A stretch of DNA of 64,000 nt from positions 1,190 through 65,189 of the forward strand of contig JBHHVE010000013.1 of the NCBI GenBank assembly GCA_046754085.1. The letters run 5' to 3'. Every line of letters begins with the position of its first letter. Position 1 is the stretch's first letter. Positions 4,597 to 23,250 of the stretch are shown here, one piece after another. A program made the translations under genes and the position numbers. Origin of the DNA: Leptospirillia bacterium (GTDB taxonomy: Bacteria > Nitrospirota > JACRHL01). The notes beneath the pieces are model-generated. The model saw nothing but the letters and a program-made list of their open reading frames with translations. It searched no databases and was not told the DNA's origin.

Positions 4597-4637
4597 CTTC
4601 CCCTTTTTTACGTCTGCCCGCTTAACGGGACGTGTTC

Positions 4638-6410
4638 TCACCCAGTTGCGATTTGCTGGCCCACCCGAGCCAACGCGTTCTTCTGTTCCAGTAGCGCCCG
4701 AACCTTCGCCACATCCCCGTTTGCCTCGGCCGCCCGAATATCTTCCAGTAGGCGGCGACCCACTTCCCGAGTCTCTTTTTTCATCAAATCCGCCACACAC
4801 TCCTCGGCGCAGACCATCGCGTCACCTTCCAGCGCCAACTCGCGGCTCATCAAGCCGGTCACCAGCCCCATGGCCGGCATATCGGCCTGCAGCAGGGTAA
4901 CGACCCCATCCACACCGTTGCCGGCGGCGACACTTGCCTCCAGCGCCTCCGCCACCACCCGAGCCCGCGGATCGGTGTAGGCGCTGGCGCACACCCGATC
5001 GCACAACCAGCCCGCGTCCACCTTCTCCTGAAGGGCCAGTGCCAGCAGCAGCGCTTCGCCGAACGGTATCGGCTGCGACGTCCGGCGGGTTGCCGTATCG
5101 TCACCCGCCGGCCCACGGCGCGGGTTGCCGCGTTTAAGGTGGCGGGACAGATCCGTCTCGCGCACCCCGAGCGCCTCGGCCACGCGGCCCAGGTAGTGTC
5201 CCCGGCGCATCGGATCACCAATCCGCCCGAGCACATCAAATACCGGCTGCGCCGCCACCAGCCGCCGTTCAACCGGGGCCTGCCCGTGACCATTCAGGCA
5301 ATCAGCAAGCAGGAATTCCATCATCGGCACCCCGGCGGTAAGCCGCTCCCGCAGCCGTTCCGACCCCTCACTACGCGCCAGGGAGTCCGGATCCTCGCCA
5401 GTGGGAAGCGTGACGACGGTCACCTCCACCGGATACGGCGCCAGAACCGCTGCCGCCTTTCTGGCCGCGGCCCGGCCTGCGGCATCGCCGTCAAACACCA
5501 GGTCCACCCGGTTCGTAAAGCGGGCCAAAAGCCTGCCGTGCTCCTCGGTGAGCGCCGTGCCCAGGGGCGCCACCGCCCAGTCCACACCATGGGTGTGACA
5601 GGCGATCACATCCATATAGCCTTCCACCACCGCAATCCGCGCCAGCTGTCCGCTGCGCCGCTTGGTCTGATGCAGGCCATAGAGCACCCGGCTCTTGCTG
5701 TAGAGCGGCGTCTCGGGCGAATTCAAATACTTCGGCGTGCGATCTCCGATGGCACGCCCGCCGAACCCGACCAGGTCACCGCTCGCGGAACGGATCGGAA
5801 ACATCAGCCGACCCCGGAACCGGTCGTACACCCGACCGCTGTCTTCGCGCTTAACGGTCACTCCGGCCAGCAGCAAATCCGCCTCGGACAAGCCACTACG
5901 GCGCAACCGCCCGGTCAGGCCGTCCCAACTGTCGGCGGCCCAGCCCAGTTCGAACGCCGCCACGGCATCCGCACCCAAACCACGCTCCGCAAGGTACCGG
6001 GCAGGGGTATCGTCACTTCCAACACCCCCAACCTGACCACAAAACACCGACTGCGCTGCCTCGTTCACCCGCTTGACCCGCTCCCGATCATCCCGGCCGC
6101 GGCCCCCATCGTCCTCACCCGCGGTAATCAACACGCCGTAGCGGTCGGCCAGATGGCGCACGGCTTCGGGAAACGCCAGCCGCTCCATCTTCATCATGAA
6201 GGTGATGACGTTGCCGCCTTCGCCACAGCCGAAGCAGTGAAAAATCTGTTTGGCGGCGTTGACGGAAAACGACGGCGATTTTTCGCTATGGAACGGACAC
6301 AGGCCGAAGTGGTTCTGACCCTTGCGCTGAATCGGCACGTGCGCCGATACCACCTCGACGATGTCGGCCGCAGCCTTCACCCGCTCTATTTGATCGTCCG
6401 GAATCTGCAC
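4638..6410 (-). CDS. dnaG: DNA primase
   Basis: [11 protein letters not shown] and CFGCG zinc finger, [28 protein letters not shown]. Confidence 0.97.
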
Positions 6411-6514
6411 CCGTACGCCTTCCCCCCACCAGTTACCTTGGTCTGGTCGCCCGCCGCTTCCCCTGCCGCCTGTCGCCCGCCTAACCCGCGATCAACGCCA
6501 CAAACACATCGTCG

Positions 6515-6958
6515 TCACGCCAGTTTTTCCCGCACCTTTGCGCTCACTGTGGAGCCGTCGGCCTGGCCCGCACATCGGGCCAACACACATTTCATAACTG
6601 CGCCCATGTCTTTCATACCTGTGGCGCCGGTTTCCGACACGGCCGCATCGACAATCCGTTCCAACGCCTCGTCCGAGAGTTGAGGTGGCAGATACGCCTG
6701 TATCACCTCAATCTCAAATTTTTCCTGATCCGCCAGATCCTGACGCCCGCCGGCCTCGTACTGGGCCCGGGAATCCTTGCGCTGCTTGATGGCCGTTTGC
6801 ACGATGGCCGTCTCTTCGGCATCCTCAAGTGGCCTGCGCAACTCGATTTCCCGATTCTTAAGCGCCGCCTGAAGCATGCGGAGGGTACCCACAACACCCT
6901 TTTCCCCCGCCTTCATGGCCACTTTCAGGTCTGCCTGAATTCTCTCCCGCAGTCCCAT
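6515..6958 (-). CDS. yqeY: GatB/YqeY domain protein
   Basis: LKVAMKAGEK...IKQRKDS..QYEAGGRQDLADQE...YLPPQLS...DMGAVMK. Confidence 0.92.
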   Translation of the reverse strand: MGLRERIQADLKVAMKAGEKGVVGTLRMLQAALKNREIELRRPLEDAEETAIVQTAIKQRKDSRAQYEAGGRQDLADQEKFEIEVIQAYLPPQLSDEALERIVDAAVSETGATGMKDMGAVMKCVLARCAGQADGSTVSAKVREKLA

Positions 6959-7207: not shown

Positions 7208-10200
7208 TCAGAAACGCCAGATCAGGTCGCCACCAACGCGTCCCTCTTCGAGGTCAAACGCGGGAACGTGCCGATAGTGCCCGGACAGACGGGCGGTGAG
7301 GCGCCCTCGAACGGTCCGCTCCGCCTCCGCGGTCAGTCCATGGTGGACGAAGTGGTCATTGGCCGGATCCTCGTCCCAACTCATACCCCACTCGTAGCGC
7401 AGCAGGTAAAAGCGGCACGGTCGCTCCCCCGGCGCCAGTTGCACGTACAGCACGGGCCCGGTCCGGTTCACGGTGTCATAAGCAAACGCGTTTTTGTTAA
7501 AGCGAACATGGTCCAGACGCGCCCCAAAGGTCAGTGGCGCAAGAGCCGGATGCACATAATCGGCCCACACCGCCGCCCGCAACTCCCGGTTGGACGGCGA
7601 CACCTGAGGACTGCCGCTCACCACCACAGTCACTGGCTCATAGCTACGGGTGGTGACCTGGGCGCCGAAACGGAACGGGAACGGCCGCCTCCAATGGTCA
7701 CTGATGGTGGCCTCCACAACCCGCACGAACACCAGATCACGCCCGACCGCCTCATCAAGGAAGCGCCCGAGCTGATAGTCCCGGGCGATACGGGCTTCCA
7801 TCCGGTGGTCGGAAAGGGTCAGACGCGCGCCACCGGAGATCCGCTGCAGGGTGCCGCCGTCGCTGTAGCCCCCCAAAGCATAGCGCCCGAACACATGGCT
7901 TCTGGGGGTCAGTTGCCGCTCCGCCTCAAGGTACAGGGTGCGCTCGCGGAACAATTGGTAGCTCTGTTGCGGTGGAATACTCCGGCCCAGAAACGGCCCC
8001 TGGGTGAATCCCGCCGAAAACGCCCGATCCCACCGCTGTCGTTGCCACGCAAAGGCAAGACGGGTGTAGCGCTTGTCGGCAATCGAGTTGGCATCGTTCG
8101 GCGAAAAATCGGCGAACCCGGCACTGGCGCTGACCCGGTCACCGTCCCGCGGCGTGAACCCGGCGGACAGGATGGCGTCTGAACGGTCAAAGTCGTAAAT
8201 CACGCCGCCGCTGCTCCGGTTCACCAGGGAATTGTCCCGAACCCGGTAGGTCGCCCCCAACTCAAGGCGCGGCGTCACGTGCTGACGACCATCCAGATAA
8301 AGGCTCCGGGTTTTGTAGCGCACCAGATTCGCGGGGCCGGACAGGGTCGAATCGGCGCGCCCATCCAGGTCGAGGACCACGGAATACTCGAAACCGGCCG
8401 CAAGCACCGGATGCCCCCCCGCCCGTGCCGCCATCCACCCCCGGCACAGGGCACAATCCCGCGGATACTCCTCGATCAGCGCCCGGTACTTTTCCTCCGC
8501 CGCGGCAAACCGAAGCTGGCGATAGTCGAGCTGCGCCGCCAGCTTGCGCCCCTCAAAAGAGTCCGGATCGGCCTTGAGGTGCTGTTCCAGCCACTCCGCC
8601 GCGCCCGGCGTGCCGGTCTGTGCCGGAAGCCCCGTGAACCAGTTTGCTTTTGACGGCCCCGAATTGCCGGAGCCATTCCTGCCGGCGTCGGCATCAGCCT
8701 CCCCCCGTTCGGCGATCTCCACAGCAGCCGCAAGCCGTTCCGCAGCAACCGCGAGACGGGTGGCGGCAACCGCAAGCTCGTCCCCTTCCTCACCCGGTTG
8801 TGGCGGCACCGCGGCAATGACCGCCACCTGCGTCATGGGCAGCGTGGGCAATGAGCCCAACTCCGCCATCAGGCGCGCCGCCATACCCTTCCGGCGGGTG
8901 GCGGCGGTTTCCAGCCGATATTCGGCAAGCGAGGGCGCGGGGGCGGTACCCGCCCGGACTGGCACCGCCACGTGGTCACCCGGATAAATCCGGTGCGGGT
9001 TATGGATGGCGGGATTGGCCCGCCATACGGCGCGCCAGGCCCGGGGAGTCCCCAGGAAACGGTTTGCGATCCGCCCCAGGGTATCGCCATCCCGCACCGT
9101 GTAATTCACCCGCTCGGGCTGACCGGTCAGGGCGGCGAGCCGGGTCCGGGGCACCGGCACCCACACCACCTTCCCCGGATGGATGAGGTAGGGGTCCGTC
9201 ATGTCCGGGTTGGCGGCAAGCAATTCAGCCCAGCGTCGAGCGTCACCCAGGTAGCGCCGGGCGATGTGGCTCAGGGTGTCGCCGGCAGATACCGTGTGGG
9301 AAAGCATCACCGTTTCCGGCCCGAAGCCCTTTCCGCCGCCTCCGGCGGCGGACGTCGTGGAGGCGGCGCCAGGGGTGAATTGCGCGGACGCGTCCGGCCC
9401 TGGCGATCCCCCCAGGTTATCCATGGCCAGTTCAATGTGGGCGCGGCCCAGCAATGCGCCCGGATGCGCCCGATCCTGTTCCAGGGCCGCAACGTAATGG
9501 ACGCGGGCGGTCTCATAGTCGCCCAGCCAGCGGTGCACGTCACCGGCCCGTACCCACAGGTCGGCCCGCTCCAGATGCATCCTCAGGGCGTCCCTGTAGA
9601 GCCGAACGGCATCGTCCAGATACCCCATCCGCTCAAATACCCGACCGAGGTCGATAACCCGCTCCGGATCGTCCGGGGAACGGTCCAGAAGCGCCTTAAA
9701 GTGCGCCGCCGCCGTGGGGTACCAGCGCAGGGAAAAGGCCATCTGCGCCAGCCTGCGCTCCCGCTCCTCGCCGGTGTAGGCCTGCCCGGCCAGGGCATAG
9801 GCCGGACGCAGCCGGCCCGTTTTCAGGTAGACCACGCTCAGGCCTTTTTGCGCGTCCCGGTAGCCCGGCGCAAGCTCAAGGGCGCGCGTGAGGCGCTGTT
9901 CGGACCGGCCCAGGTCCTCCGTCTGGAGGGCCAGCAGGCCGTCCCCCAACAGACCGTCAACATGGTCCGGGTCGATGGCAAGCAGACGGGAAAAGGCGTC
10001 CCGTGATTCATTCAGGTTGCCGGACCAGCGCAGTACGGTGCCCAGCCAGAACAGCGCCTCGGGCCGGTCTCCGGCATTTCTGTAAAGTTCGGCGGCGTGC
10101 TGAAAGTCGCCCGATTCACGTGCGGCATGGGCGGAGAAAAGACCGCCCGCTTCGCTCTCCGGAGCAGCCAGCGCACATGCCGGGAACATCAGCCAAAAGG

Positions 10201-10234
10201 CGATGACGAGGGTGGCCAGCCAGCGCACGCTCAC
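7208..10234 (-). CDS. Secreted TPR + 2x LysM + C-terminal outer-membrane beta-barrel protein (putative polysaccharide export porin)
   Basis: Signal peptide (..ACALA); TPR repeats; two LysM motifs (HTVSAGDTLSHIARRYLG.., YTVRDGDTLGRIANRFLG..); amphipathic strand-rich C-terminus ending in IWRF. Confidence 0.75.
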   Translation of the reverse strand: MSVRWLATLVIAFWLMFPACALAAPESEAGGLFSAHAARESGDFQHAAELYRNAGDRPEALFWLGTVLRWSGNLNESRDAFSRLLAIDPDHVDGLLGDGLLALQTEDLGRSEQRLTRALELAPGYRDAQKGLSVVYLKTGRLRPAYALAGQAYTGEERERRLAQMAFSLRWYPTAAAHFKALLDRSPDDPERVIDLGRVFERMGYLDDAVRLYRDALRMHLERADLWVRAGDVHRWLGDYETARVHYVAALEQDRAHPGALLGRAHIELAMDNLGGSPGPDASAQFTPGAASTTSAAGGGGKGFGPETVMLSHTVSAGDTLSHIARRYLGDARRWAELLAANPDMTDPYLIHPGKVVWVPVPRTRLAALTGQPERVNYTVRDGDTLGRIANRFLGTPRAWRAVWRANPAIHNPHRIYPGDHVAVPVRAGTAPAPSLAEYRLETAATRRKGMAARLMAELGSLPTLPMTQVAVIAAVPPQPGEEGDELAVAATRLAVAAERLAAAVEIAERGEADADAGRNGSGNSGPSKANWFTGLPAQTGTPGAAEWLEQHLKADPDSFEGRKLAAQLDYRQLRFAAAEEKYRALIEEYPRDCALCRGWMAARAGGHPVLAAGFEYSVVLDLDGRADSTLSGPANLVRYKTRSLYLDGRQHVTPRLELGATYRVRDNSLVNRSSGGVIYDFDRSDAILSAGFTPRDGDRVSASAGFADFSPNDANSIADKRYTRLAFAWQRQRWDRAFSAGFTQGPFLGRSIPPQQSYQLFRERTLYLEAERQLTPRSHVFGRYALGGYSDGGTLQRISGGARLTLSDHRMEARIARDYQLGRFLDEAVGRDLVFVRVVEATISDHWRRPFPFRFGAQVTTRSYEPVTVVVSGSPQVSPSNRELRAAVWADYVHPALAPLTFGARLDHVRFNKNAFAYDTVNRTGPVLYVQLAPGERPCRFYLLRYEWGMSWDEDPANDHFVHHGLTAEAERTVRGRLTARLSGHYRHVPAFDLEEGRVGGDLIWRF

Positions 10235-11679
10235 CCGCCTCCGCCACCCTGGGGCTCGGCGTGAGGCCTGAACGCCTCACTCTCGACCACTTCCCACTTG
10301 CGCCGGAAGGTGGCCAGCTGGATCAGTCCGCGCACCCGCCAGAAGACGTTCAACTGGCGATAGCCGAAGTTCTCCAGTATCGCAAACAGGATAAGCGTCA
10401 TGAGATGGCTCCACCCGGGGTACCGCCGCTCGGTCAACTCCTCGAGCAGCACGGCACCCACGGAGAGGAACACGCCGGTGAGCACCGACAGCGTGATGTA
10501 GAGTAGCAAAAAGTCGGTCGACAACACGCCAAGAACGGCGGAAAGTCCAACCACCAGGTAGCCGAACAACTCCACCAGCGGCCCGAACAGCTCCACGAAC
10601 TGGTACGGCACCCCGATCATGCCCACGGTGCCGTAGCGGGGACGGCCCAGCATGGGCAGGTGGGTCAGCACCGCCTCCCCCAGCCCCCGGTGCCAGCGGC
10701 GGCGCTGGGCACCCAGCGCCGCCAGATTGGTGGGCACCTGGGTCCAGCAGATCGGGTCGGCAATAAATGTAATCCGGTAATTTTCCTGGCTCCCCTGCAT
10801 GCGCCGGTGCAGCCTGAGCACCATCTCCATATCCTCGGCCACGGTACGGGTGTCATAACCGCCCACCTCCACGACCACGCTCTTCTTAAACATGGAGAAG
10901 GTGCCGGACAGAATCATCAGCGCACCGATGCTGCTCCATCCGGTGCGGCCGAACAGGAAGCAGCGCAGGTACTCCACCACTTGCATGCGCCCCAAAAAGT
11001 TCCGGGGCAGGCGAACCTCCTGAATCTGACCGTCCTGAAACGTACAGCCGTTCGCCACCCGCACAATGCCGCCGGTGGCGATGATCTCGTCCGGGGCACT
11101 GATAATCGGCCCCATCAGGCGCAACAGGGCGTTCCGTTCCAGCACCGAATCGGCATCCACAGAACAGAAGTAGGGGCTGCGGGACAGGTTAATCCCCACA
11201 TTCAGGGAATCGGACTTGCCGGAGTTGTCCTTGGTCACGACGGTCAGGCCCGGAATCTCGGGGCTGACAAAAAACCGCTTTACCGGCTCGGTGGGAATCA
11301 GCGGACGGTAGATCAGGTCCACCTCATGCAGTGAAAATGCCTCGATCAAATACCGCAGGGTGGCATCCTCGGAGCCATCATCGACCACGATCACCTCGTG
11401 GGACGGGTAGTTGAGGGCAAGAAGCGACTGGACTGTCTGAACAATATTGTTGGCCTCGTTGTACGCCGGCACGATCACGGTAACCGGCGGCGTGGTGGGA
11501 AGGCTCGCAAGGTGGGTGAAGGCGCCAAAGCGAAGCGAGCGGCGATGCCGCTCGGTGGCGATCGCGGAGACGAACAACAGGGCGAAATACACCCCGTTGA
11601 CAGCAATGTAATAAGACAGGATGAACAGGTTCAGCCACGGGATCAGGGTGGCAAACCCGGCGTGGAGCGTCACCAGCAT
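10231..11679 (-). CDS. Processive GT2 family glycosyltransferase (PgaC/IcaA-like synthase)
   Basis: VPAYNE, VDDGS, GKSDSLN, VDADS, AED and QRRRW motifs; N- and C-terminal TM helices. Confidence 0.9.
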   Translation of the reverse strand: MLVTLHAGFATLIPWLNLFILSYYIAVNGVYFALLFVSAIATERHRRSLRFGAFTHLASLPTTPPVTVIVPAYNEANNIVQTVQSLLALNYPSHEVIVVDDGSEDATLRYLIEAFSLHEVDLIYRPLIPTEPVKRFFVSPEIPGLTVVTKDNSGKSDSLNVGINLSRSPYFCSVDADSVLERNALLRLMGPIISAPDEIIATGGIVRVANGCTFQDGQIQEVRLPRNFLGRMQVVEYLRCFLFGRTGWSSIGALMILSGTFSMFKKSVVVEVGGYDTRTVAEDMEMVLRLHRRMQGSQENYRITFIADPICWTQVPTNLAALGAQRRRWHRGLGEAVLTHLPMLGRPRYGTVGMIGVPYQFVELFGPLVELFGYLVVGLSAVLGVLSTDFLLLYITLSVLTGVFLSVGAVLLEELTERRYPGWSHLMTLILFAILENFGYRQLNVFWRVRGLIQLATFRRKWEVVESEAFRPHAEPQGGGGG

Positions 11680-13058
11680 CAGACCTCCTCCGCTGCGGAG
11701 GCTGCGGCGGCTTCCCGTGCGGTGAGGTGGGCCGCTGCCGTTGCCCGTACCACCGGGTCGGGGTCTTCCGTGGCGGCCCGCTCAAGCACCCCCGTGACCC
11801 TCGGATGGGCCAGGGGCGCCAATATCCCGAGAACCCGCTGCCGAACCTTCGAGCGCCCGTGGGATATCGCCGCATGGGCCAGCATGGCCACCGCACCCGT
11901 GTTCGCCACCGCCGCCAGAAGGGCGGCGGCCGATCCCGGCCTGACCACACCCTCCACCTCCCGCTCCAGACCGTCGATGGCGTCGGAAATCACCCGGGTA
12001 CGCTGAAACTCTTCCACCACCTGCTGGCGGGCGTAGTGGTCGTCGGATGTCAGGAGCGTGCTGATAAGCACCTCCCGCGCTTCGGCACTCATGTTGGCCA
12101 GGATGTGTGCCGCTTCCTGACGCACCCGCCAATGGCTGTCAAACAGACGCCGCCCCAAAGGAGCAACCGCGGCCGGGTCGGCCAACAGGCCGAGGGCGCG
12201 CACCGCGTGCATGCGAACCACCCAGGCATCGTCTTCAAGACTGCCAATAATGGAGAACAGAGCGCTGCGCGCACCCACCTGACCCAGCGCCTGCACGGCC
12301 TTGGCCCGAACGTCGGGCTCCGCATCCGCAAGGCGTTCCGTTAGTTTTGGCACTGATGAGGATGCGCCTGCTTCCCCAAGCACATAGGCCGCCGCGCTCC
12401 GCACCCGCCACGACGGATGCTCCAGCATCGGCTGCAAGGCATCCGCCGCTTGCGGGCCAAATCGGGTGAGGCTGCCGGCCACCACCCGCTGAGACAGGTT
12501 TTCCTCCCCGCCCGCCACTGCCACCAACACTTCGGCCAGGGTGACCAAGGAACGGTCATCCACCAGGCGCCCCAGGGAACGGACCGCAACGGTGCGTACC
12601 TCCCGGTCCGGGTCTTCCGTGGCCGCCAGCAGCGCCTCCGCGATTTCCGGGCCGCGGTGATCCGCAAGCCATGCCGCTGCCATGGCCCGCTCCCAGCGGG
12701 AACCGCCGGTAAGCATATCCAGGTAGCGGCCGGTAATGCCGGCATCGCGCATAAACTCTTCCAGCCGCGCGGCCTGTTCCGGGCCCGCGCCGGCGAGGGC
12801 TTCGCGCAGGACATTTTCAAGGGCCTCCGCCTCTGATGAGCCGGGGGTGGGCAGGATATCGGGGAGTTCTTCGGGAGTGGGTGGAAATCCGGCACAGATT
12901 CGCGCCACCAGCGGAGCCTGTTGAACCTCGACCCGACCCTGGCGACGGCTGTGGATCACCTGCCGCAGCCGCAACACGGCAAGGGCTAACAAAAACAGGG
13001 TCGTGGCAACCACCAGGACAGTGATTGCCACAACAATCAGAATGCGGGCATATTCCAT
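11679..13058 (-). CDS. Membrane-anchored HEAT/PBS-lyase repeat protein
   Basis: N-terminal TM helix; repeated D.D..VR..A..ALG units. Confidence 0.85.
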   Translation of the reverse strand: MEYARILIVVAITVLVVATTLFLLALAVLRLRQVIHSRRQGRVEVQQAPLVARICAGFPPTPEELPDILPTPGSSEAEALENVLREALAGAGPEQAARLEEFMRDAGITGRYLDMLTGGSRWERAMAAAWLADHRGPEIAEALLAATEDPDREVRTVAVRSLGRLVDDRSLVTLAEVLVAVAGGEENLSQRVVAGSLTRFGPQAADALQPMLEHPSWRVRSAAAYVLGEAGASSSVPKLTERLADAEPDVRAKAVQALGQVGARSALFSIIGSLEDDAWVVRMHAVRALGLLADPAAVAPLGRRLFDSHWRVRQEAAHILANMSAEAREVLISTLLTSDDHYARQQVVEEFQRTRVISDAIDGLEREVEGVVRPGSAAALLAAVANTGAVAMLAHAAISHGRSKVRQRVLGILAPLAHPRVTGVLERAATEDPDPVVRATAAAHLTAREAAAASAAEEV

Positions 13059-13125: not shown

Positions 13126-14187
13126 TCAGTTCGTCCCGGACCGAATCATCTCCTGAATAATCGCATGTGCAATTCGATCCACCGGCAGAACCTCCCCGAC
13201 CGAACCCAGCCGCAATGCCTCGCCCGGCATGCCGAACACGGCACAGGTCTGCCGGTTCTGCAGGAGCGTCACCGCCCCCGCCTGTTCGAGCGTGATCAGA
13301 CCTTCGGCCCCGTCCCGTCCCATACCGGTCAAAAGCACCGCCAGCAGATCGCCCCCCAGATCCTGCGCCGCACTTTCAAACAGAATGTCCACCGAGGGGC
13401 GGACGCTGTTTCTCAGTGGCGCATGAGACCGTATCAGCCAGCCGTTCCGGAACTCCAGGTGCACATCGGATGGAGCCAGAAGCACCTGACCGGCAAGTTG
13501 TGAAAGCGGCTCATCCCGTTCGGGAACCCGCACCTCCCGTCCGGAAGAACTGGAAAGCCACGTAGCCAGAGCGTCCCCGAACGAGTCGGCCACGTGGGCG
13601 ACGATTATAACAGGAACCGTCATGTCTTTCGGAAGACCCGAAAGCACTTTGGCCAGCGCCTGGGGCCCCCCGGTGGACGCCCCCATCAGCACCGCGCGGA
13701 TGTTCTGGTTCCCGGATGCGGGCACAAACCGTGGCGGCACCGCCGCGACAAGGCTCTCTTCACCCGCGTTGGGGACACAGGCCCTGATACTGGCAAGCAA
13801 CGCCTCGTTCCACCCCGGCTGCCGGTCGAACGCCTTATGATGTACCGCCGTTGCGCCCGCGTTCAGGGCCCGGGCCTCGGCGGCGGGGTCACTGAACGCG
13901 GAAACCACGATCACCGAGACGGATGCATTCCGTTTACGCATGAGACGGGTGGCGTCGACCCCGTCCAGTCCCGGCATGGCGACATCCATAAGCACCACGT
14001 CCGGCTCCAGGTCGATAATCCGCTGGGCCGCGTGCAGGCCGTTGCCCGCCTCACCCACCACCGCCATGTCCGGCTGGCGCGCCACCAGTTCGCGCAGAAA
14101 CATGCGGTACTGGAACGAATCGTCCACCACCAGCACGCGAACAGTGTCTTTCGACACCAGGGTTTTGGGTTTGGTCAGCGCCCTCAT
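13126..14187 (-). CDS. cheB: Chemotaxis methylesterase CheB (REC + methylesterase)
   Basis: VLVVDDS..DVVLMDVAMP; GASTGGP, VAH and LTGMGRDGA catalytic Ser/His/Asp. Confidence 0.93.
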   Translation of the reverse strand: MRALTKPKTLVSKDTVRVLVVDDSFQYRMFLRELVARQPDMAVVGEAGNGLHAAQRIIDLEPDVVLMDVAMPGLDGVDATRLMRKRNASVSVIVVSAFSDPAAEARALNAGATAVHHKAFDRQPGWNEALLASIRACVPNAGEESLVAAVPPRFVPASGNQNIRAVLMGASTGGPQALAKVLSGLPKDMTVPVIIVAHVADSFGDALATWLSSSSGREVRVPERDEPLSQLAGQVLLAPSDVHLEFRNGWLIRSHAPLRNSVRPSVDILFESAAQDLGGDLLAVLLTGMGRDGAEGLITLEQAGAVTLLQNRQTCAVFGMPGEALRLGSVGEVLPVDRIAHAIIQEMIRSGTN

Positions 14188-15185
14188 CCGCCCACCGACT
14201 CCGGTTCATCCGCATGATGGCACACGCAATTGCGCCCGGTTTCCTTGGCGCGATACAGGGCCGCGTCCGCCCTTGCGACCAGATCCTCCCACGATGACAA
14301 CTCGGCATGCCACTCGGCCACGCCAATGCTTGCGGTACAGCACACCTCCACCGGTGAAAAATCGATTCCTGAAATGGCCTGCCGTATCCGGTCCGCAATG
14401 ATCACCGCCCCTTCCAGGTTGGTGTCTGGCAATACCAGAATGAACTCCTCACCACCGTAGCGGCCGACCTTGTCCACCTCCCGCACCATATCGGACATCA
14501 CCTTCGACACATCGCGCAGCACCCGGTCTCCGAACTGGTGACCGTGGGTGTCGTTGAGTGATTTAAAGAAGTCGAGATCAAGCATGGCCACCGAAACCGG
14601 ATGCCGAAAACGCCGGGCACGCGCCACTTCTTCGATGAGGCATTCCTCGATATGACCCCGATTGGCCACATTGGTGAGGGCGTCGGTGGTGGCCATCTGG
14701 CTTAACTGGTTGTTCTTTTCCTCAAGCTGGGACAGGATGATCGCATTTTCCATGCTGGCGTCCACCAGCGCCTGATTGCGCCGGGAAAGTTCGTCCTGCA
14801 GGGACTTCAGGCGCAACTGGACCCGCACCCGCGCCATCAGTTCCTCCGCCTCGAACAGCTTGGGGATGTAGTCGTCGGCACCTTCGTCGAGGCCGCGCAC
14901 CCGGTCATCCACCTCGCCCATGGCGGTGAGCAGCATCACCGGCAAAAAGCCGTGGCCCTTCTGCAATTTGATCCAGTTGAGCACTTCGATGCCGTCGATG
15001 CCGGGCATCATCAGATCGAGCAACACCAGATCGGGCCACTCATCCGACTCTTCCAGGTAGTTCACGCATGATTCGCCATCGACAAATGCGGTGACCTGGT
15101 ACCCTTCCTGTTCCAGGTGGGAGCTCAGCATCATGCGCACCGTCAGGCTGTCATCGACCACCAGTACATGACCCAGGGACTTCAT
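14184..15185 (-). CDS. REC-GGDEF diguanylate cyclase (WspR-like)
   Basis: REC (DLVLLDLMMP), coiled coil, DLDFFKSLNDTHGHQFGD, REVD I-site, RYGGEEF. Confidence 0.92.
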   Translation of the reverse strand: MKSLGHVLVVDDSLTVRMMLSSHLEQEGYQVTAFVDGESCVNYLEESDEWPDLVLLDLMMPGIDGIEVLNWIKLQKGHGFLPVMLLTAMGEVDDRVRGLDEGADDYIPKLFEAEELMARVRVQLRLKSLQDELSRRNQALVDASMENAIILSQLEEKNNQLSQMATTDALTNVANRGHIEECLIEEVARARRFRHPVSVAMLDLDFFKSLNDTHGHQFGDRVLRDVSKVMSDMVREVDKVGRYGGEEFILVLPDTNLEGAVIIADRIRQAISGIDFSPVEVCCTASIGVAEWHAELSSWEDLVARADAALYRAKETGRNCVCHHADEPESVGG

Positions 15186-17557
15186 TACGATTCTCCCTGG
15201 ATTAAACGGGCCACTGTATCCGACAGCATCTTCTGGGTCGTTTCGCCCTTAACCAGATAGGCGTCGGCGCCAGCCTGTTCACCTCGGCTGAGAGAGCCGG
15301 GACTGTTCAGGGAGGACATCAGCACCACGGGAAGGTCACGGGTGCCCGCCTGTTCCCGAATGTGCCTGAGCAGGTTATAGCCGGTCATGCGCGGCATTTC
15401 CACGTCACTGATCACCAGATCGATGCCGCCCTGGGCAAGCTTTGTCAGGCCGTCCTCGCCATCCACGGCAATCACCACCCGGTATCCAGCCCGCTCCAGC
15501 ATCCCCTTTTCCATCATGCGGGCACTCAGGGAGTCGTCCACCACCAGCACGGTTTTCATGCCCTTGGCGGGCGCGGGGGATGTCGGGGAAGCGCCACCGG
15601 AAGTCGACGGCGGTATTGGGTTGTCACCACCCGAAACGGTGGCAGGCTTATGGGCGGCAAGGGCAAACAGCGCCTCAAGATCTAAAATCACCGCCGGCTT
15701 TCCGCTGGCAAGCAGCGTCATGCCCGCCACCCTGGGCAACTCGCCCACATGGGGCGCGAGCGGCTTCACAATAATGGTCCGGACCCCGACCACCCGATCG
15801 ATACCGATCACGATCCGCCGCTTTCCAAACCGGAGAATCAAGGCGGAGTCCGACATACCGGAGGAGGGGGTTTCCACCACCTGATCCATCAACAAGAGCG
15901 GCAGCGCCACCCCGTCCACGTTGACCACCGGGTGTCCGGCGCACACATCACGCACCAGGTTGTCCATCGGTCGCACCTGCACCACCGACTCACGCGGCAC
16001 CGCGAAAGAGCGGCCGTTCCATGCAAACAGGAAGGCCTCCATGGTGGACAGGTCCACCGGCAGTTGCATGCGGATCTCGGAGCCGCCCCGGGGGAGGTTG
16101 CGCAACGTGAGCCACCCTTTCAACTGTCGGATCGCCGCATGCACCACATCAAGCCCGACCCCGCGGCCAGACACCTGTGTGACCTGGTCGACGGTGGAAA
16201 ATCCCGGGGTGATCAACCAGTGAAGCACCCCTTCCGGATTCGTCAAAGAGGGGTCCGAGGCATCGCATAACCCCTGATCCAGCACTTGTTTACGAATGCG
16301 TTCGAGATCAAATCCGGCACCGTCGTCACATACGGTGACCGTCAGGCGGGAACCCTGCCGATAGAAACGCACGTTGACTGCGCCGCACTCCGGTTTGCCT
16401 TGCCGCAGCCGTTCCTCCGGCGCTTCCAGCCCGTGATCGATGGCGTTTCTGAGCAGATGGTGCAGCGGTTCCCGCAGTCCGTCCAGCAGGGCGCGGTCCA
16501 GTTCAATCGACTCGCCCTTGATCGTAAGCCGAACCTGTTTTCCCAATAACCGTGCGGTTTCCCGGGTCACCAGTTGCATTGCGGTGGTCAGGGTGGAAGC
16601 CGGCAGCATGCGCAGGTCCATCACACCGTCGTGGATGTTGGAGGTCACCTGATCAAACTGGCTGGTACGACCCTTGACATCGATGGCCATTCCCCGGAAT
16701 GCCTCCTTGAGAGCCACCGTGTGGATACGGCCGAGGATGCCGTACAGAACCTCCCCCTGAAGGGTGTTCGAGAGCGCCTCTTTCACCTCACCGATCTGGG
16801 ACCACTCCTGAATCTGGCTCAACGCCTGCATCACCCGCTGGGCGTTCTGACTGAGGATACGCACACGGCCACTGTGCTCGTTCAACCAGATGCGCTGGAC
16901 GATCAACTCCCCCGCCAGGTTCGCCAACCCGTCGATCTTGCTCAGGGCAACGCGCAGATAGGCTTGCTCGGGTCCGCCCGTGGGCCCCTGTTCCACTACC
17001 GGGGACTCGGTCTCAGCCGCGTCCTCAGGGACGCCGGAATCCGGCTCGGAGGCGCCTTCCTGGAAATCATCTGCGCCATCCAACCCGTCCCCGGAACCCG
17101 GCTCGTCAAGGGCGGCTGTGGAGACACCCCGGGCAGTAACGGCGTCTGTGGAGTCCTGTTCGGCGGGCGAGGCAGGTGCCTCGCCCCGGGCCGCGGCCTT
17201 GGTGGCCTCAAGTTCCGTTACTATTGGCACTATGTCGTAATCCGGGCCGTCGATACCAATGGCGGCCACCATTTCGTCGATGACCTGGACCGCCCTTAAC
17301 AGGCTGCTGATCGCCTCCCCCGAGGGGAGCACTCCGTCATCGCGAAACACCCCCAGGACATCCTCGATACGGTGCGCAACCGTGCCCAGATCATCCAGCG
17401 AGACCATGCGGGCGGAACCCTTCAGGGTGTGGGCAAGGCGAAACAGGGTACGGATGTTCTCCGGATCCGAGGGGGTGTTCTCAAGCGCCAGCAGCCCGCA
17501 GCTCAGGCCTTCCAGGTGCTCCGCCGCCTCCATCTTGAAAAATTCGCGAACGTCCAT
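15185..17557 (-). CDS. cheA: Hybrid CheA kinase with C-terminal receiver (WspE-like)
   Basis: HPt AHTLKG, HLLRNAIDHG, DDGAG, PGFST, SGRGVGLDVV, CheW domain, REC DLVISDVEMP; start ATG 17557. Confidence 0.93.
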   Translation of the reverse strand: MDVREFFKMEAAEHLEGLSCGLLALENTPSDPENIRTLFRLAHTLKGSARMVSLDDLGTVAHRIEDVLGVFRDDGVLPSGEAISSLLRAVQVIDEMVAAIGIDGPDYDIVPIVTELEATKAAARGEAPASPAEQDSTDAVTARGVSTAALDEPGSGDGLDGADDFQEGASEPDSGVPEDAAETESPVVEQGPTGGPEQAYLRVALSKIDGLANLAGELIVQRIWLNEHSGRVRILSQNAQRVMQALSQIQEWSQIGEVKEALSNTLQGEVLYGILGRIHTVALKEAFRGMAIDVKGRTSQFDQVTSNIHDGVMDLRMLPASTLTTAMQLVTRETARLLGKQVRLTIKGESIELDRALLDGLREPLHHLLRNAIDHGLEAPEERLRQGKPECGAVNVRFYRQGSRLTVTVCDDGAGFDLERIRKQVLDQGLCDASDPSLTNPEGVLHWLITPGFSTVDQVTQVSGRGVGLDVVHAAIRQLKGWLTLRNLPRGGSEIRMQLPVDLSTMEAFLFAWNGRSFAVPRESVVQVRPMDNLVRDVCAGHPVVNVDGVALPLLLMDQVVETPSSGMSDSALILRFGKRRIVIGIDRVVGVRTIIVKPLAPHVGELPRVAGMTLLASGKPAVILDLEALFALAAHKPATVSGGDNPIPPSTSGGASPTSPAPAKGMKTVLVVDDSLSARMMEKGMLERAGYRVVIAVDGEDGLTKLAQGGIDLVISDVEMPRMTGYNLLRHIREQAGTRDLPVVLMSSLNSPGSLSRGEQAGADAYLVKGETTQKMLSDTVARLIQGES

Positions 17558-17641
17558 CAGGGCACCCGCGCCACGGCAAATGCCGCCCGGAAGCCGGGCC
17601 GGGCAAACCACATGAAAAACAGTCCGTTACGCACCATGGCG

Positions 17642-19573
17642 TTATTTACCCACCAGCTTGGAGAGGTTTTCCGCGGTTTTGCTCAGATCTGCCGCGGTGA
17701 TCAGGGCCTCCTCCGAGCGCTTCGACACATTTTCGGCGACCTCTTTGGCCTCGTCCACGAACGCATCCACACCGGACACCGCGTCACTCTGCTCCTGGGC
17801 GGAGAGGAAAATCGACCCGGCCATGTCAGACACATGACTGACCGCCCCGACGATCGCGTCCAGACGTTCGGTCACCATGGTCATCAGGTCGGCGCCTTCG
17901 TTGACCGCCCCCTTGCCTCGTTCGGTGGCGCCCTGGGTATCCTCCACGGCCTGCTGCACCCGCTTGATCATGTCGCGGATTTCCTGGGTCGCCACCTGGG
18001 AACGATTGGCAAGCCTGCGCACCTGTTTGGCCACCACCGCGAAGCGGGCACCGGATTCTCCCGCACCCGCCGACTCGATGGTGGCATTGAAGGAGAGCAG
18101 CTTGGTCTGGTCGACCAGTTCGTTCAGGATGGCCAGGATGCCGTCCATCATCTCGGTCTGGTGGCGGGTATCTTCCATGGCCTGGGAAATTTCCCGCGCC
18201 TGTTTCAGAATGGCGTCCATACGCCCCTGAGAGCCCCGCAGCACCTCCAGTCCCTGCACACACTCGAGGCTGGCGCTGTCGGTCTGCCTGGCCATTTCCT
18301 CTGTCTGCCCGCGGATGCCGGTCAGGGCCGCCTGGAACTCCAGAATGGTGTTCGACACCTTATCGATGTGCTCCACCTGAGTGCCCGTTTCACGGGCCTG
18401 CTCTGCGGTTTCCTCACGCATCTGGGCGGAAAGCTCGTCCAGCGCGCCACTGGCGACCCCGATCTGGCGGTTGAATACGCCCACGCTGCGGTAAATCCAG
18501 AAGCCCATCGCACCGGTCAGAGCCAGGACCAGGGCCAGACCGGCCAGAGAACGTTTCCTGAGGGCGTCGCCGAATTCCGCGCTCTCCGTGGTGGTTGAGG
18601 AAATTCCCTGACTGGTGCCATCCGACAGGGTACTCAGCACCCACTTGATGGATTCCAGGGTGGGGGCGATTTCGGTCTGGTAGAAATACAGGTCCCGCCG
18701 CCAATCCTCCGCGTCGCGGCTCGCAAATGCCTCATCAAACACGTCAAACAGTTCGGCGCGGTTCCGCGTCAGCTCCCCGTGGAGTTCCTTGAAAGCCGGG
18801 CCAGCGGACTCAAAGGTGAAGGTGAGCAACTGGAAAATACCCTCATTGCGTTGCTGTTGTGCGACAAACGCCTCCCGATAGCGGGGCTCCTGGTTGAACA
18901 GGTAGCCACGCAGGTTGCTCATCAATGCACCTAGGCTGTCCTGATACCCCCAGAGCGCCGACAGCACCATGGGATCCGCCGCGGTATCCTTTGCCAGCCA
19001 GCGCTCCATGAGCTTGTCCATGTATCGGGCCGACTTTCCCGCCAACTGCTGACCCCGGGTGTTGATCAGGTGCGCCGAGTGGAAGTTGTCCGGTCGGGAC
19101 CGGATGATGAAGACCTCCTCGGCCTGCTGTGAAAGCTTGTCGATCAGGGTCTTGGCCCCGGACACCAGTCGCACCGTGGATGCATTCTCAAGGTCGTCCG
19201 TGGGTGCATTTTTTGAAGGGGCCGGACTGTCCGCCTGTCTGGCCTGACGCGCGGCAAACTCATTGAAGCTGAGGCGAACTATCTCCAGGCTGCTTTTATA
19301 GCGCTCCTGTTCGGCCACATTGCCGGTAAACAAAAACGCCTCCAGCGCGCTCTGGACATCGAGGGTGTTGCTGACCAGCGCCGTGACCATGATGGAGTCG
19401 GGCACCATCTGCTCCGACACCGTTGCCTGCATGTGAGCGTTCTGCGCCAGACCCCGGATCAAGGGGATGGACAGCACCACCAGCAGAAACAGGATCACAC
19501 TCACCGCCAGAACGATTCGGCGTCCGGGACTGGTTTCCCGACGGAGGGTCCATTGAAACCGTTTGCGGGCCAC
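17642..19573 (-). CDS. Methyl-accepting chemotaxis protein with large periplasmic helical sensor
   Basis: Two TM helices; tip QTKLLSFNATIESAGAGESGARFAVVAKQVRRLA. Confidence 0.9.
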   Translation of the reverse strand: MARKRFQWTLRRETSPGRRIVLAVSVILFLLVVLSIPLIRGLAQNAHMQATVSEQMVPDSIMVTALVSNTLDVQSALEAFLFTGNVAEQERYKSSLEIVRLSFNEFAARQARQADSPAPSKNAPTDDLENASTVRLVSGAKTLIDKLSQQAEEVFIIRSRPDNFHSAHLINTRGQQLAGKSARYMDKLMERWLAKDTAADPMVLSALWGYQDSLGALMSNLRGYLFNQEPRYREAFVAQQQRNEGIFQLLTFTFESAGPAFKELHGELTRNRAELFDVFDEAFASRDAEDWRRDLYFYQTEIAPTLESIKWVLSTLSDGTSQGISSTTTESAEFGDALRKRSLAGLALVLALTGAMGFWIYRSVGVFNRQIGVASGALDELSAQMREETAEQARETGTQVEHIDKVSNTILEFQAALTGIRGQTEEMARQTDSASLECVQGLEVLRGSQGRMDAILKQAREISQAMEDTRHQTEMMDGILAILNELVDQTKLLSFNATIESAGAGESGARFAVVAKQVRRLANRSQVATQEIRDMIKRVQQAVEDTQGATERGKGAVNEGADLMTMVTERLDAIVGAVSHVSDMAGSIFLSAQEQSDAVSGVDAFVDEAKEVAENVSKRSEEALITAADLSKTAENLSKLVGK

Positions 19574-19576
19574 CGG

Positions 19577-21103
19577 CTACACCTCCTCCCGGATATTACC
19601 GCCAGCCATGAACTCCAGTTCCATTGCGGTTCTGGACAGGTTTTCCACGGTTTCCAGGGTTTCGCTCGATTTTTTCTCGGACTCTCCGGACACCTGGGAC
19701 AGGGATTCCACCGCCTCGGTTACCTGCTCCACCGCCACCCGTTGTTCCCGCGCGGTCATCTCGATCTCCTGAATCGAATCCGCGGTCTTGGTCACCAGCA
19801 TCAGCAGGGCATCGAAATTTTCCGCGATACGCGCGGTATCCTCGATACCCTGCTCCACCGCATTCACACCACCCACCGTGGCCTCACTGGTCACACGGGC
19901 GGTTTCCTGAATGTCTTCGATCAGGGCGCGAATCTCTTCGGTTGACTCCACCGCGCGCTCCGCCAGCATACGGATCTCCTCGGCCACCACGGCGAAGCGG
20001 CGTCCGGCCTCACCGGCCCCGGCGGCCTCGATGGTGGCGTTGATCGAAAGCAGATTGGTCTGGGAAGCCATCTCATTGATGATCTCCAGCACACTGTTGA
20101 TCTGTTGCGCCTTTTCCACCAAGGAGTTCATGTGGTCGGTCACGCGCCCCACCTGACCCTTGATCTCGCCCATCCCCTTCTGGGAATGGGACAACAGGGC
20201 GTGGCCCTTATGGCACTCATCGGCCGCATCCTTGGAGGTCTGCACCATGTGCCGGCTGTTTTCCGACATGTTGCGGCTGGTGGCCACCAACTCCTGCATG
20301 GTGGTTGAAATCTGGACCGCCGCGGAGGCGTGCTCGGCGGCACTCGCCACCTGATACTGGGCCGCCCCGGCCAACTGCCGGGTGGAGAGGGAAATCTGGC
20401 GGATCGGCCGATCCAGTCCCTTGAGAATGCGCCACGTCAGGAAAATCCCGGTGGACACGCTCAACAGCAGCAGGATGCTGCCCAGGGCCACAACCTTCGG
20501 GAGCCCCTTCTTCAGGACGGAGCGTACGTCATTCCATTCCTCATCCAGCAGCAGTTCCATATGGTGATTTAGACGCTCGATGCGAAGGTCCAGGTCGTAT
20601 TCCAGCGCCACCAGACGCGGGTGTTCGCCCTCCTGGTGCATATACTCCCCGATCGGGGTTCCAAGTTCTTGAATGGCCATCTGCTCCAGTTCGGCAAACA
20701 GGGTGGAGATCGTCGTCAGCTCCATCTGTTCGACCAACTCGCTGGAATGGAGACGGCCGGCATGTGCCTGGAACTGTTCCGAGGCGCGCACACGACCCGC
20801 GCGGGCATCCTCGGCAAAGCCCATTTCCCACTGGTTCATGGCGCGATCCAGTTCCCGCGTCGCCAACTGGATACCGTGTACGCTGTCGCTGGTTTGACGT
20901 ATCTCGGCCACACGGCTGAGCCGCGGCTCCACCTCGATCATCACCCAGAAGCTCAACACAACACTCACAACGATGGAGATGGCCACCAGGGCGATACCGA
21001 CCGCCAGAAGCCGACGGGCGGGAGCAACCCGGAGTCGCTCAGGTCGCATATCACCTTCATCCATCATGGTTTCGGATTTTTTCGGATCGCTCATGGCCAG
21101 CAC
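19577..21103 (-). CDS. Methyl-accepting chemotaxis protein
   Basis: Two TM helices; tip QTNLLSINATIEAAGAGEAGRRFAVVAEEIRMLA. Confidence 0.9.
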   Translation of the reverse strand: MLAMSDPKKSETMMDEGDMRPERLRVAPARRLLAVGIALVAISIVVSVVLSFWVMIEVEPRLSRVAEIRQTSDSVHGIQLATRELDRAMNQWEMGFAEDARAGRVRASEQFQAHAGRLHSSELVEQMELTTISTLFAELEQMAIQELGTPIGEYMHQEGEHPRLVALEYDLDLRIERLNHHMELLLDEEWNDVRSVLKKGLPKVVALGSILLLLSVSTGIFLTWRILKGLDRPIRQISLSTRQLAGAAQYQVASAAEHASAAVQISTTMQELVATSRNMSENSRHMVQTSKDAADECHKGHALLSHSQKGMGEIKGQVGRVTDHMNSLVEKAQQINSVLEIINEMASQTNLLSINATIEAAGAGEAGRRFAVVAEEIRMLAERAVESTEEIRALIEDIQETARVTSEATVGGVNAVEQGIEDTARIAENFDALLMLVTKTADSIQEIEMTAREQRVAVEQVTEAVESLSQVSGESEKKSSETLETVENLSRTAMELEFMAGGNIREEV

Positions 21104-21136
21104 AGCCTTTCCTCTTCAAAAAACACCGCGCCGCCC

Positions 21137-21655
21137 TCAGCAACGCGCATCAAGCTGAATAAACAGGTTGTCCAGATCGGGAAACAGCACCAGGTTGCTC
21201 TCCGCAAATGCAGTCTCCCGCACCATCTGTCTGAGTCCCGGCGGCAAATTGGCGGGGGGATCGCTTCGCTCATAGTCGCCAAGGGCAACCAGGCGGCCGA
21301 TTTCGGTGACTGACAGACCCAGGTTGAAACCGGGCCCCTTCATCACCACCACCTCACCCCCGGGTTCCCTCAGGGGTGGATAGCCGAACATGGCCGGTAA
21401 GTCGTATACGGCCACGATCTCCCCCTGGAGGTTGATGACCCCAAGCAGGTGTGTGGGCGAACCGGGCAGCGGGGTCAGGTCCGCATGGCGGACCAGCCGC
21501 AGCACACGGTTAATCGGCAATGCAAAGCGCTCCCGGTCCACATGCACCAGCAGGTGTTCCGGGTTACCGTGCTGGCTGTCCGCCAGATCCTGGGCAAAGC
21601 CCTCATCGAAATCCGCCCGAAGGTTGGTCAGCCGCTGTTCCAGTCCCGTTTTCAA
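21137..21655 (-). CDS. cheW: CheW adaptor protein
   Basis: FALPINRV..LTPLPGSPTHLLGVINLQGEIVAVYDL. Confidence 0.85.
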   Translation of the reverse strand: MKTGLEQRLTNLRADFDEGFAQDLADSQHGNPEHLLVHVDRERFALPINRVLRLVRHADLTPLPGSPTHLLGVINLQGEIVAVYDLPAMFGYPPLREPGGEVVVMKGPGFNLGLSVTEIGRLVALGDYERSDPPANLPPGLRQMVRETAFAESNLVLFPDLDNLFIQLDARC

Positions 21656-21689
21656 AAAACCCTCTCCCCGTCCGTTACGTCATGCCGGA

Positions 21690-22136
21690 TCAGGCCGCCA
21701 CCGGCCCGCTCAATAGCTTCGCCAACCGATCCGCGCCCAGTAGATGAAACAACTGACCGTCCAGTTCGAGGAGGCCGATTTTGGCCGAACCAGCCTGTGA
21801 ACCGCTCTCCGTCACAACGGCCTGGGGGTCGTAATCGACGATGTCGTCCACCCAGTCCACCTGCCAGTGGCATGGGCCTTGCGGGGTACGGATGGCCAGC
21901 ATCCAGGGACGCCTCTGATACGGATCGCCCTGGTCGGAACCCCCTTCAAGCACCTGGCCGAGGTCGTAAACTCGCACCAGATCGCCGTGCAGCCGGATCA
22001 CGCCCAGCACCGGTTCGGGCGCACCGGGTTCTTCCTCCACTTCAGGCATCCTGCCCACCTCGTGAAGGTCGAGAATGTCCATGGCGTAACGGACACCCCG
22101 TACGCTAAAAACCAGCATCTGGCCGGATGATTCCAC
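21690..22136 (-). CDS. cheW: CheW adaptor protein
   Basis: LVFSVRGVRYAMDI..PGAPEPVLGVIRLHGDLVRVYDL. Confidence 0.85.
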   Translation of the reverse strand: MESSGQMLVFSVRGVRYAMDILDLHEVGRMPEVEEEPGAPEPVLGVIRLHGDLVRVYDLGQVLEGGSDQGDPYQRRPWMLAIRTPQGPCHWQVDWVDDIVDYDPQAVVTESGSQAGSAKIGLLELDGQLFHLLGADRLAKLLSGPVAA

Positions 22137-22253: not shown

Positions 22254-22282
22254 TTGTCAGGGCAAGGGGACAAACCTATACT
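22254..22282 (+). promoter_or_regulatory. Sigma70 promoter of phoH
   Basis: TTGTCA-N17-TATACT, 7 nt before ATG 22290. Confidence 0.6.
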
Positions 22283-22289
22283 CGAAGGC

Positions 22290-23228
22290 ATGACCACCCA
22301 CACCCTGGTTCTCCAGGAGCACCTCGACACCGCCGGTTTGTTTGGCATGTACGATGCCCACCTCAAGGCCATAGAGGCCGCGCTGGGGGTGGTGATCGTC
22401 GCCCGGGGCCAGAACCTCACGATCAACGGCCCGGAAAGCGCCGTCCACGCCACCAAAAAAGTGCTGACGCAGCTTTCCGAGAGACTGCTGGAGCGGGGCG
22501 CCCTCAGCCCGGATGACGTGCAATTCACACTGCTTCAGGTCACCAAAGGCGCTCCGGCGGAAACCACTCTGTCGCTGCCGGGAAAAGCCCACCCGCTGAT
22601 GCCGCGTTCCGCCAACCAGGCCTACTATCTCAAGGCCATCGCCGAACATGACCTGGTGCTTGGCATTGGCCCTGCCGGTACCGGAAAGACCTATCTGGCC
22701 ATGGCCTCCGCCGTATCGGCATACAACCGTAAGGAGGTGCGCCGCATCATCCTGACCCGGCCGGCGGTAGAGGCGGGGGAGCGCCTGGGCTTTTTGCCCG
22801 GCGATCTGGTGGAGAAGGTCAACCCTTACCTGAGACCCCTTTACGATGCGCTCTACGACATGATGCCGCCGGACAAGGTGGCACAGCTTCTGGAGCGCAA
22901 TGAAATCGAAATCGCACCCTTGGCGTTCATGCGCGGACGCACCCTGAACGACGCCTTCGTCATACTGGACGAGGCTCAGAACACCACCTCGGACCAGATG
23001 CATATGTTTCTGACCCGCTTCGGCGAGGATTCCAAAGTGGTGGTCACCGGCGACGTCACCCAGGTGGATCTCGGCCCCGGAGAAATTTCGGGCCTGGTGG
23101 AAGCCGAAGGCATCCTGGACGGTATAAAAGGGGTTAGCGTTGTCCGTTTTGAGGTCGGCGACGTCGTCCGCCACCCGCTGGTGGCCCGCATCGTCCAGGC
23201 TTACGAGGACCACCGCCGCGACCTCTGA
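22290..23228 (+). CDS. phoH: PhoH-like ATPase (YbeZ)
   Basis: [50 protein letters not shown]. Confidence 0.95.
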
Positions 23229-23250
23229 GGTCGCGGCGTGAGAACAGACC

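Follow-up and report, generated by a model that had tools for sequence, protein, structure and literature searches.

Synthase-dependent systems for exopolysaccharides such as alginate, cellulose, poly-N-acetylglucosamine (PNAG) and Pel export their polymer through an outer-membrane beta-barrel served by a tetratricopeptide-repeat (TPR) scaffold. The barrels of PelB, BcsC and PgaA are described as having 16 strands and that of AlgE as having 18, extracellular loops occluding all four (PMC12141448). How such machines cross the peptidoglycan, and how they relate to it, is presented as an open point (PMC9734138). We analyzed a gene at positions 7208..10234 (minus strand) of a 64,000-nucleotide stretch of DNA, hereafter the window, from a Leptospirillia bacterium of the phylum Nitrospirota (assembly GCA_046754085.1, contig JBHHVE010000013.1, positions 1,190 to 65,189 of the forward strand). 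Its product, P0001 (1008 aa), is a TPR-LysM-LysM-TPR-barrel protein, and our best reading is that it exports, across the outer membrane, the product of a synthase-dependent exopolysaccharide system not described before.

Several described systems resemble this locus in part. PgaA, the PNAG export porin of Escherichia coli, and BcsC and PelB combine TPRs and barrel, with no LysM. In alginate export, the same pairing of TPR scaffold and barrel is divided between two proteins, AlgK and AlgE, the latter with 18 strands as reported (PMC12141448), and we see no sequence similarity to P0001. The NfrA/NfrB pair, which handles an N-acetylmannosamine polymer in E. coli, is described as a TPR-containing outer-membrane protein and a family 2 glycosyltransferase (GT2) under local cyclic di-GMP (c-di-GMP) control (PMC8669469). 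Finally, TsaP and other secretin partners tie a LysM module to an outer-membrane export channel and are thought to fix the channel to peptidoglycan; likewise, GspB/OutB is reported to anchor the type II secretion secretin to peptidoglycan (PMC9239104). TsaP differs in being a separate protein that serves a multimeric pilus secretin, whereas the LysM domains in the window are fused into what would be a monomeric TPR-barrel polysaccharide exporter.

Domain architecture

The reading frame of P0001 lies on the minus strand, with exactly the limits given in an earlier note on this DNA, and begins with a GTG codon; the first 4 nt of the gene overlap the stop of the upstream GT2 gene. A plus-strand reading of 7208-10234 is interrupted by stops and was ruled out. 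In a public copy of the protein (P0002, 1006 aa), the start is placed two codons further downstream. The elements that the earlier note had listed by inspection (signal peptide, TPRs, Gly/Ala/Ser linker, two similar LysM domains, Ala-rich helix, a further TPR and a C-terminus ending in Phe) are all present, and can now be delimited as follows.

The N-terminus, MSVRWLATLVIAFWLMFPACALA/AP, resembles a Sec signal peptide as judged by eye (residues 1-23, ...ACALA/AP, 10166..10234) and forms a low-confidence helix in the full-length AlphaFold2 (AF2) model, which was built on a 9-row alignment and has a mean pLDDT of 70.2. It is followed by a TPR array of 15 helices (residues 28-270, 9425..10153; pLDDT ~85-95), of which residues 39-266 are covered by Pfam TPR families (TPR_2, E 3.2e-19, 67.8 bits; TPR_19, 60.8 bits; others). 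A disordered Gly/Ala/Ser/Pro-rich linker (residues 271-307, 9314..9424; G 24%, A 17%), with pLDDT <50 over residues 277-306, leads to LysM domain 1 (residues 308-362, 9149..9313) and LysM domain 2 (residues 372-428, 8951..9121). Beyond these lies an Ala-rich spacer (residues 429-543, 8606..8950), a stretch of low confidence (427-541, pLDDT 22-34) in which two helices, 442-460 and 486-509, are modelled. Two further TPR-like helix pairs adjoin the barrel (residues 544-608, 8411..8605), their four helices (545-607) being modelled with pLDDT ~90 both in the full-length model and in a separate model of the C-terminus. TPR membership is thus given by Pfam matches above threshold and by 15 + 4 modelled helices. 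Beta strands then run from residue 610 to 1007 of the full-length model, within a C-terminal domain (residues 609-1008, 7211..8410) that ends in WRF.

The last helix before the barrel carries a CxxC pair, C594/C597 (RDCALCRGW; window 8441-8455, minus strand, residues 594-597), which is invariant in 9/9 close family members (alignment A1) and absent from the distant relatives P0012-14. This pair may form a disulfide in the periplasm or bind a metal.

A predicted outer-membrane barrel outside the described families

Folded separately (residues 535-1008, 13-row alignment), the C-terminal domain gave four helices followed by an all-beta barrel, with pLDDT 91.9 and pTM 0.84. DSSP assigns 22 beta segments to this model, which we read as 20 transmembrane strands, counting 320-338 and 341-359 each as one long strand with bulges. 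The predicted even number of strands, the aromatic C-terminal end (...DLIWRF) and the signal peptide all agree with an outer-membrane barrel. Several motifs that are among the family's most conserved, DLDGRAD, SPNDANSIAD, GRFLDE, AFAYDT and WDEDPANDH, fall in presumed outer-side loops. Residues assigned to the lumen by strand parity carry a net charge of +3 and the entire barrel one of +7, a measure too crude to indicate polymer charge.

The top structural neighbors of the domain are all outer-membrane barrels, whether sought with Foldseek or with VIA-align. The best Foldseek matches in the PDB are 22-strand TonB-dependent receptors (TMq ~0.5), followed by AlgE and Occ porins at 0.36-0.41 (AlgE TMq 0.37-0.39). 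VIA-align, run against 48,161 representative chains, scored 18-strand Occ/OprD porins at 17.0-17.6, BcsC at 16.5 (6tzk) and 16.2 (9b8h), PgaA at 15.4 (4y25) and PelB at 15.3 (9h80_M, 14% identity). As these scores are effectively tied, the fold is best called "outer-membrane barrel", with no solved family singled out. The BcsC and PelB alignments start in the pre-barrel helices and therefore cover the TPR-barrel junction. Language-model neighbors were the PgaA_barrel, SlipAM and BCSC_C clusters (score 0.93), which we take as a lead only.

Sequence comparison, by contrast with the fold, places the domain in none of the families tried. The last 449 residues of P0001 (560-1008) match no Pfam family at E<=1, neither PF21197 (PgaA_barrel) nor PF05420 (BCSC_C), and 60/60 of the best family-profile matches in the PDB fall in the TPR or LysM regions, leaving no PDB sequence match for the C-terminal domain. 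NfrA_C, YaiO, Alginate_exp (AlgE) and SlipAM, which we take to be present in the Pfam library under these names, also gave 0 matches at E<=1 and are thereby set apart by sequence only. The NCBIfam models fare no better: TIGR03939, for PgaA, reaches 23 bits where 366.65 are required, over residues 35-150 in the TPRs only, and the BcsC model NF008520 scores 14 bits against 858, again over TPRs only. Further differences concern the barrel and the partners. By our reading, the window protein has about 20 predicted strands and short loops, against the loop-occluded 16-strand barrels reported for PgaA, BcsC and PelB (PMC12141448). The window operon has a HEAT-repeat protein instead of the PgaB deacetylase and PgaD of the PNAG system, and lacks the BcsB and PelC partners of the cellulose and Pel systems. 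P0001 appears to work like PgaA, BcsC or PelB, yet it fails each family's sequence tests and its modelled barrel appears larger. Within the open-access full-text literature searched, we found no description of a LysM-bearing TPR porin or of a HEAT-GT2 exopolysaccharide module.

A conserved HEAT-GT2-porin module

Immediately upstream of the porin gene lie genes for a GT2 (P0015, 482 aa, 10231..11679, minus strand) and a HEAT-repeat protein (P0016, 459 aa, 11679..13058, minus strand; Pfam HEAT_2, E 1.3e-45). The HEAT and GT2 genes overlap by 1 nt and the GT2 and porin genes by 4 nt, making the three translationally coupled. P0015 matches Glycos_transf_2 and Glyco_tranf_2_3 in Pfam and falls just short for Chitin_synth_2 (26.5 bits, cut-off 27), a family that scores above cut-off in 5/6 members scanned (loci L001, L002, L015, L017 and L018; 29.1-40.2 bits). 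Its best NCBIfam match is the PNAG synthase PgaC_IcaA (135.7 bits, E 2e-39, below the cut-off of 422), followed in order by an XrtG-associated GT2, CelA and NodC. It carries the motifs DAD, AED and QRRRW, the last of which we take to be the chitin-synthase form of QxxRW, and has hydrophobic segments at both ends. A processive GT2 with DxD, ED and QxxRW is therefore encoded together with the exporter, as in synthase-dependent systems, and P0015 is presumed to be the inner-membrane polymerase and translocase.

P0016 has a single N-terminal transmembrane helix; the residues after it are strongly basic, which by the positive-inside rule would place the HEAT repeats in the cytoplasm. Within the juxtamembrane region, R38/R42 (RxxxR; window 12933-12947, minus strand) are invariant in 4/4 HEAT orthologues. 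One may speculate that this pair, which is reminiscent of c-di-GMP-binding motifs although its surroundings are generally basic, marks the HEAT protein as a candidate c-di-GMP receptor.

The porin family is small. With the barrel as phmmer query, 1.84 billion representative proteins yielded 11 sequences at E<=0.001, the window's own included, and a word-indexed search of 5.8 billion proteins found 9 family members; a word search with the profile of barrel alignment A3 returned P0014 only. All seven full-length close relatives (P0003-P0007, P0009 and P0010; barrel 42-50% identical) carry LysM domains, three copies in most of them and two in P0007, as in the window protein (alignment A1); P0008 is a fragment, short at its N-terminus. 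Four more distant relatives possess TPRs and the same barrel with no LysM at all: P0011 (806 aa, 38% identical) and P0012-P0014 (573-758 aa, 24-27% identical). In a search of 401 genomes of the phylum, barrel-reaching matches occurred, among the strongest matches listed, only in G000, G014, G041 and G049, which are 4/7 genomes of the window's own taxonomic family. A raw tally of 397/401 was discarded, as its model included TPR and LysM columns. Two genomes (G004, G023) had weak TPR matches only, and a third, which belongs to that same taxonomic family (G032, locus L016 9592-10803), has a TPR gene with three LysM domains that is truncated by the contig end.

Gene order around the porin is retained as well. 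The series GGDEF-CheB-HEAT-GT2-porin-(yqeY)-dnaG is found in L001 and L002, and HEAT-GT2-(LysM-less porin)-yqeY in L015. Two metagenome loci, L017 and L018, encode P0012-like, LysM-less TPR-barrel proteins (barrel 21-25% identical), with a UbiA-type prenyltransferase and a GT2 adjoining the porin gene. In both, the cluster holds a GT2 39% identical to that of the window (over the whole length in L017, E 2e-106); L017 also encodes a hybrid histidine kinase, a PMT_2-like membrane protein (GT-C type) and a 1063-aa HEAT protein, 33% identical to the window's (E 2e-24; this comparison covers L017 only). The scan of L018 began at its third open reading frame, and the frame in the PMT_2 position has no Pfam match. 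Since the trio recurs both in close relatives and in LysM-less relatives of about 25% identity, HEAT protein, GT2 and TPR-barrel protein form a conserved module. The UbiA and PMT_2-like genes of the distant version (L017 5386-8004 and 10265-11155; L018 10172-11155) hint at a lipid-linked step or a modification that has no counterpart in the window cluster.

The 4-nt overlap with the GT2 gene, the HEAT neighbor and the conservation of the trio support the name "export porin" that the earlier note had proposed, and its further claims, of a C-terminus folding as a barrel, of LysM domains inserted into a TPR-barrel protein and of an uncharacterized architecture, have held up in the confident AF2 model, in P0011-P0014 and in the family and literature searches, respectively.

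The LysM domains

LysM domains bind N-acetylglucosamine (GlcNAc) polymers, both peptidoglycan and chitin-type glycans. In a Pfam scan of whole P0001, LysM (PF01476) is matched over two stretches (E 1.9e-17); scanned alone, both pass the cut-off of 20.9 bits, domain 1 with 40.9 and domain 2 with 36.6. They share 47% identity (E 4e-15), keep the T-V-x-x-G-D-T-L motif and are modelled as beta-alpha-alpha-beta LysM folds (308-362 and 374-426, pLDDT 71-82), suspended between disordered linkers of ~30 and ~115 residues about halfway along the periplasmic arm. The NCBIfam model "peptidoglycan-binding protein LysM" (NF008399, YgaU/Kbp-type) is matched at E 3.1e-17, below its cut-off, and the family-profile search of the PDB returned TsaP chains (3jc8 at 5.3e-12, 6ve2 at 4e-10). 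A search with the LysM region, in which 1070 candidates were scored, returned wall-hydrolase-type LysM proteins and no second LysM-porin fusion; beyond the family, the closest LysM pairs come from proteins that also contain an M23 peptidase, a lytic transglycosylase or an amidase domain. A second LysM-matching reading frame exists elsewhere in the window's genome (G000:C52:13283-13720).

In most close homologues a third LysM aligns with the Ala-rich stretch of P0001 (alignment A1). A frameshifted third domain was ruled out: the LysM motif is absent from the other two frames of residues ~412-558, and residues 429-545 have no Pfam match when scanned alone. Judging from these sequences, the third LysM of the homologues has therefore been lost or replaced in P0001. 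LysM number thus varies among orthologues (three, two, or none in P0011), the rest of the module being constant, and the distribution of the domain indicates an addition in one lineage. In a tree of 13 barrel rows, whose sole starred branch sets off P0012-14, P0011 has no supported position among the LysM-bearing rows; this fits a loss of LysM in P0011 as well as divergence before LysM was gained.

Given an export porin, we consider it somewhat probable that the LysM domains act as a peptidoglycan anchor. They are canonical and keep VxxGDT; they resemble the YgaU/Kbp-type model and TsaP; their closest outside relatives reside in wall hydrolases; they hang between disordered linkers in mid-arm; and their number varies when the transport module does not. 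For a porin, a role in guiding a GlcNAc-type product seems doubtful, and a combination of the two, or another role, more doubtful. The main competing explanation, which we judge unlikely, keeps the export porin and has the LysM domains bind a nascent GlcNAc-containing polymer, chitin- or PNAG-like, in the periplasm and either take it over from the TPR arm for delivery to the barrel or hold it at the cell surface. The GT2 speaks for this, with its matches to PgaC_IcaA, NodC and Chitin_synth_2 and its QRRRW motif, as does a LysM whose reported ligand is PNAG and not peptidoglycan (PMC10491226). However, that LysM is described as lacking the VxxGDT motif that both window domains keep, and the polymer-binding part of PgaA is reported to be its TPR domain (PMC9384988). 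The wall-hydrolase kinship of the outside LysM domains likewise argues against binding to cargo. Moreover, the HEAT-GT2-barrel module of P0011 and of the distant relatives has no LysM, so that transport does not require the domain.

A chemosensory cluster upstream

Upstream of the polysaccharide genes, a Wsp-like chemosensory cluster (13126..22136, minus strand) was recognized from Pfam matches. It comprises two CheW proteins (21690-22136 and 21137-21655), two methyl-accepting chemotaxis proteins (19577-21103 and 17642-19573), a CheA-CheW-REC protein (15185-17611), a REC-GGDEF protein (14184-15185) and CheB (13126-14187), all on the minus strand; CheR was not seen among the window reading frames scanned. 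The cyclase has a GGEEF motif with an I-site RxxD five residues upstream. A 67-nt gap separates cheB from the HEAT gene. NfrB has a c-di-GMP-binding domain of its own, whereas the window GT2 shows none.

Directly downstream of the porin gene lie yqeY-dnaG-rpoD (2800-6958, minus strand, from Pfam matches), a position kept in L001 and L015, and in L002 with no recognizable yqeY. A sigma-70-like site occurs at 7075-7047 (minus strand), between porin and yqeY. On the plus strand, a PhoH-like ATPase with a 7TM-HD receptor hydrolase (22254-25557) is found upstream of the chemosensory cluster. The locus occurs in hydrothermal-vent metagenome runs.

Discussion

Very probably, P0001 is an export porin; taken whole, the reading in which its periplasmic LysM domains bind glycan is somewhat less secure, though still probable. 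In the pathway we envisage, the Wsp-like chemosensory system would activate the REC-GGEEF diguanylate cyclase, and c-di-GMP would switch on the inner-membrane GT2, acting with the membrane-anchored cytoplasmic HEAT protein. The GT2 would polymerize a sugar polymer and translocate it across the inner membrane, whereupon the TPR arm would escort the polymer through the periplasm to the C-terminal barrel of about 20 strands, which would release it. Most likely, the LysM pair between its flexible linkers would hold the exporter, through binding to peptidoglycan, at the place where the polymer crosses the sacculus.

Several observations weigh against this pathway or parts of it. The ligand class of the LysM domains, peptidoglycan or chitin-type, is indistinguishable from sequence, and the chitin-synthase-like GT2 would make a GlcNAc product plausible and so favor the guide model. 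The strand count was taken from DSSP text and not from coordinates, and barrel closure is likewise a prediction; by score, the barrel resembles Occ porins (18 strands) and TonB receptors (22 strands) at least as closely as it does the polysaccharide exporters. With the strand boundaries chosen, connecting loops are all <=13 residues, so that loop-plug gating of the PelB/BcsC/PgaA type is not evident, and so wide a barrel might need another gate. Neither Pfam nor NCBIfam finds PilZ or another known receptor domain in the GT2 or the HEAT protein. In G032, cheB is followed immediately by the truncated gene, HEAT and GT2 genes being absent from that position. Lastly, among the runs containing the locus, no RNA run is listed.

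Two other explanations discard polysaccharide export, and we hold both to be very improbable. P0001 could be a TPR-barrel protein, Slam-like or not, that translocates or assembles proteins or lipoproteins, with the GT2 adjacent by chance or for glycoprotein export. SlipAM clusters do appear among its language-model neighbors, and the distant P0012 has a sub-threshold TPR_Slam match (32.0 bits, cut-off 35.2), but the barrel has no SlipAM match in Pfam at E<=1 and is far larger than the Slam barrel, which has 14 strands, and the link to GT2 and HEAT genes is translationally coupled and conserved in relatives down to ~25% identity. As for a structural tether between outer membrane and peptidoglycan in the manner of OmpA, Pal or OmpM, with the barrel as anchor and the GT2 link as envelope remodelling, it would have no need of a 250-residue TPR arm and a large barrel, its LysM-less orthologues keep TPR and barrel, and the family is too rare for a general envelope component (11/1.84 billion proteins; 4/7 own-family genomes).

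An export porin of the kind preferred here, whose periplasmic arm incorporates wall-binding modules, would offer a natural experiment on how synthase-dependent machines cross the peptidoglycan. Its barrel falls in no described family and appears wider than those of the solved 16- and 18-strand exporters, while the HEAT-repeat partner, being constant, hints that the synthase is regulated or scaffolded differently. The module as a whole stands a fair chance of meriting a class of its own. Tentatively, HEAT protein, chitin-synthase-like GT2 and TPR porin of about 20 strands could form such a distinct class, in one Nitrospirota lineage of which a LysM array was gained that either fastens the machinery to peptidoglycan or acts on a chitin-like product. 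If true, this class would stand beside the alginate, cellulose, PNAG, Pel and Nfr systems, and P0001 would be the first such exporter with a built-in wall- or glycan-binding module. With the Wsp-like cluster directly upstream, the locus would amount to a complete and compact signal-to-polymer pathway in an uncultured organism of a hard-to-culture phylum, and its three export genes are small enough for reconstitution in a laboratory host.

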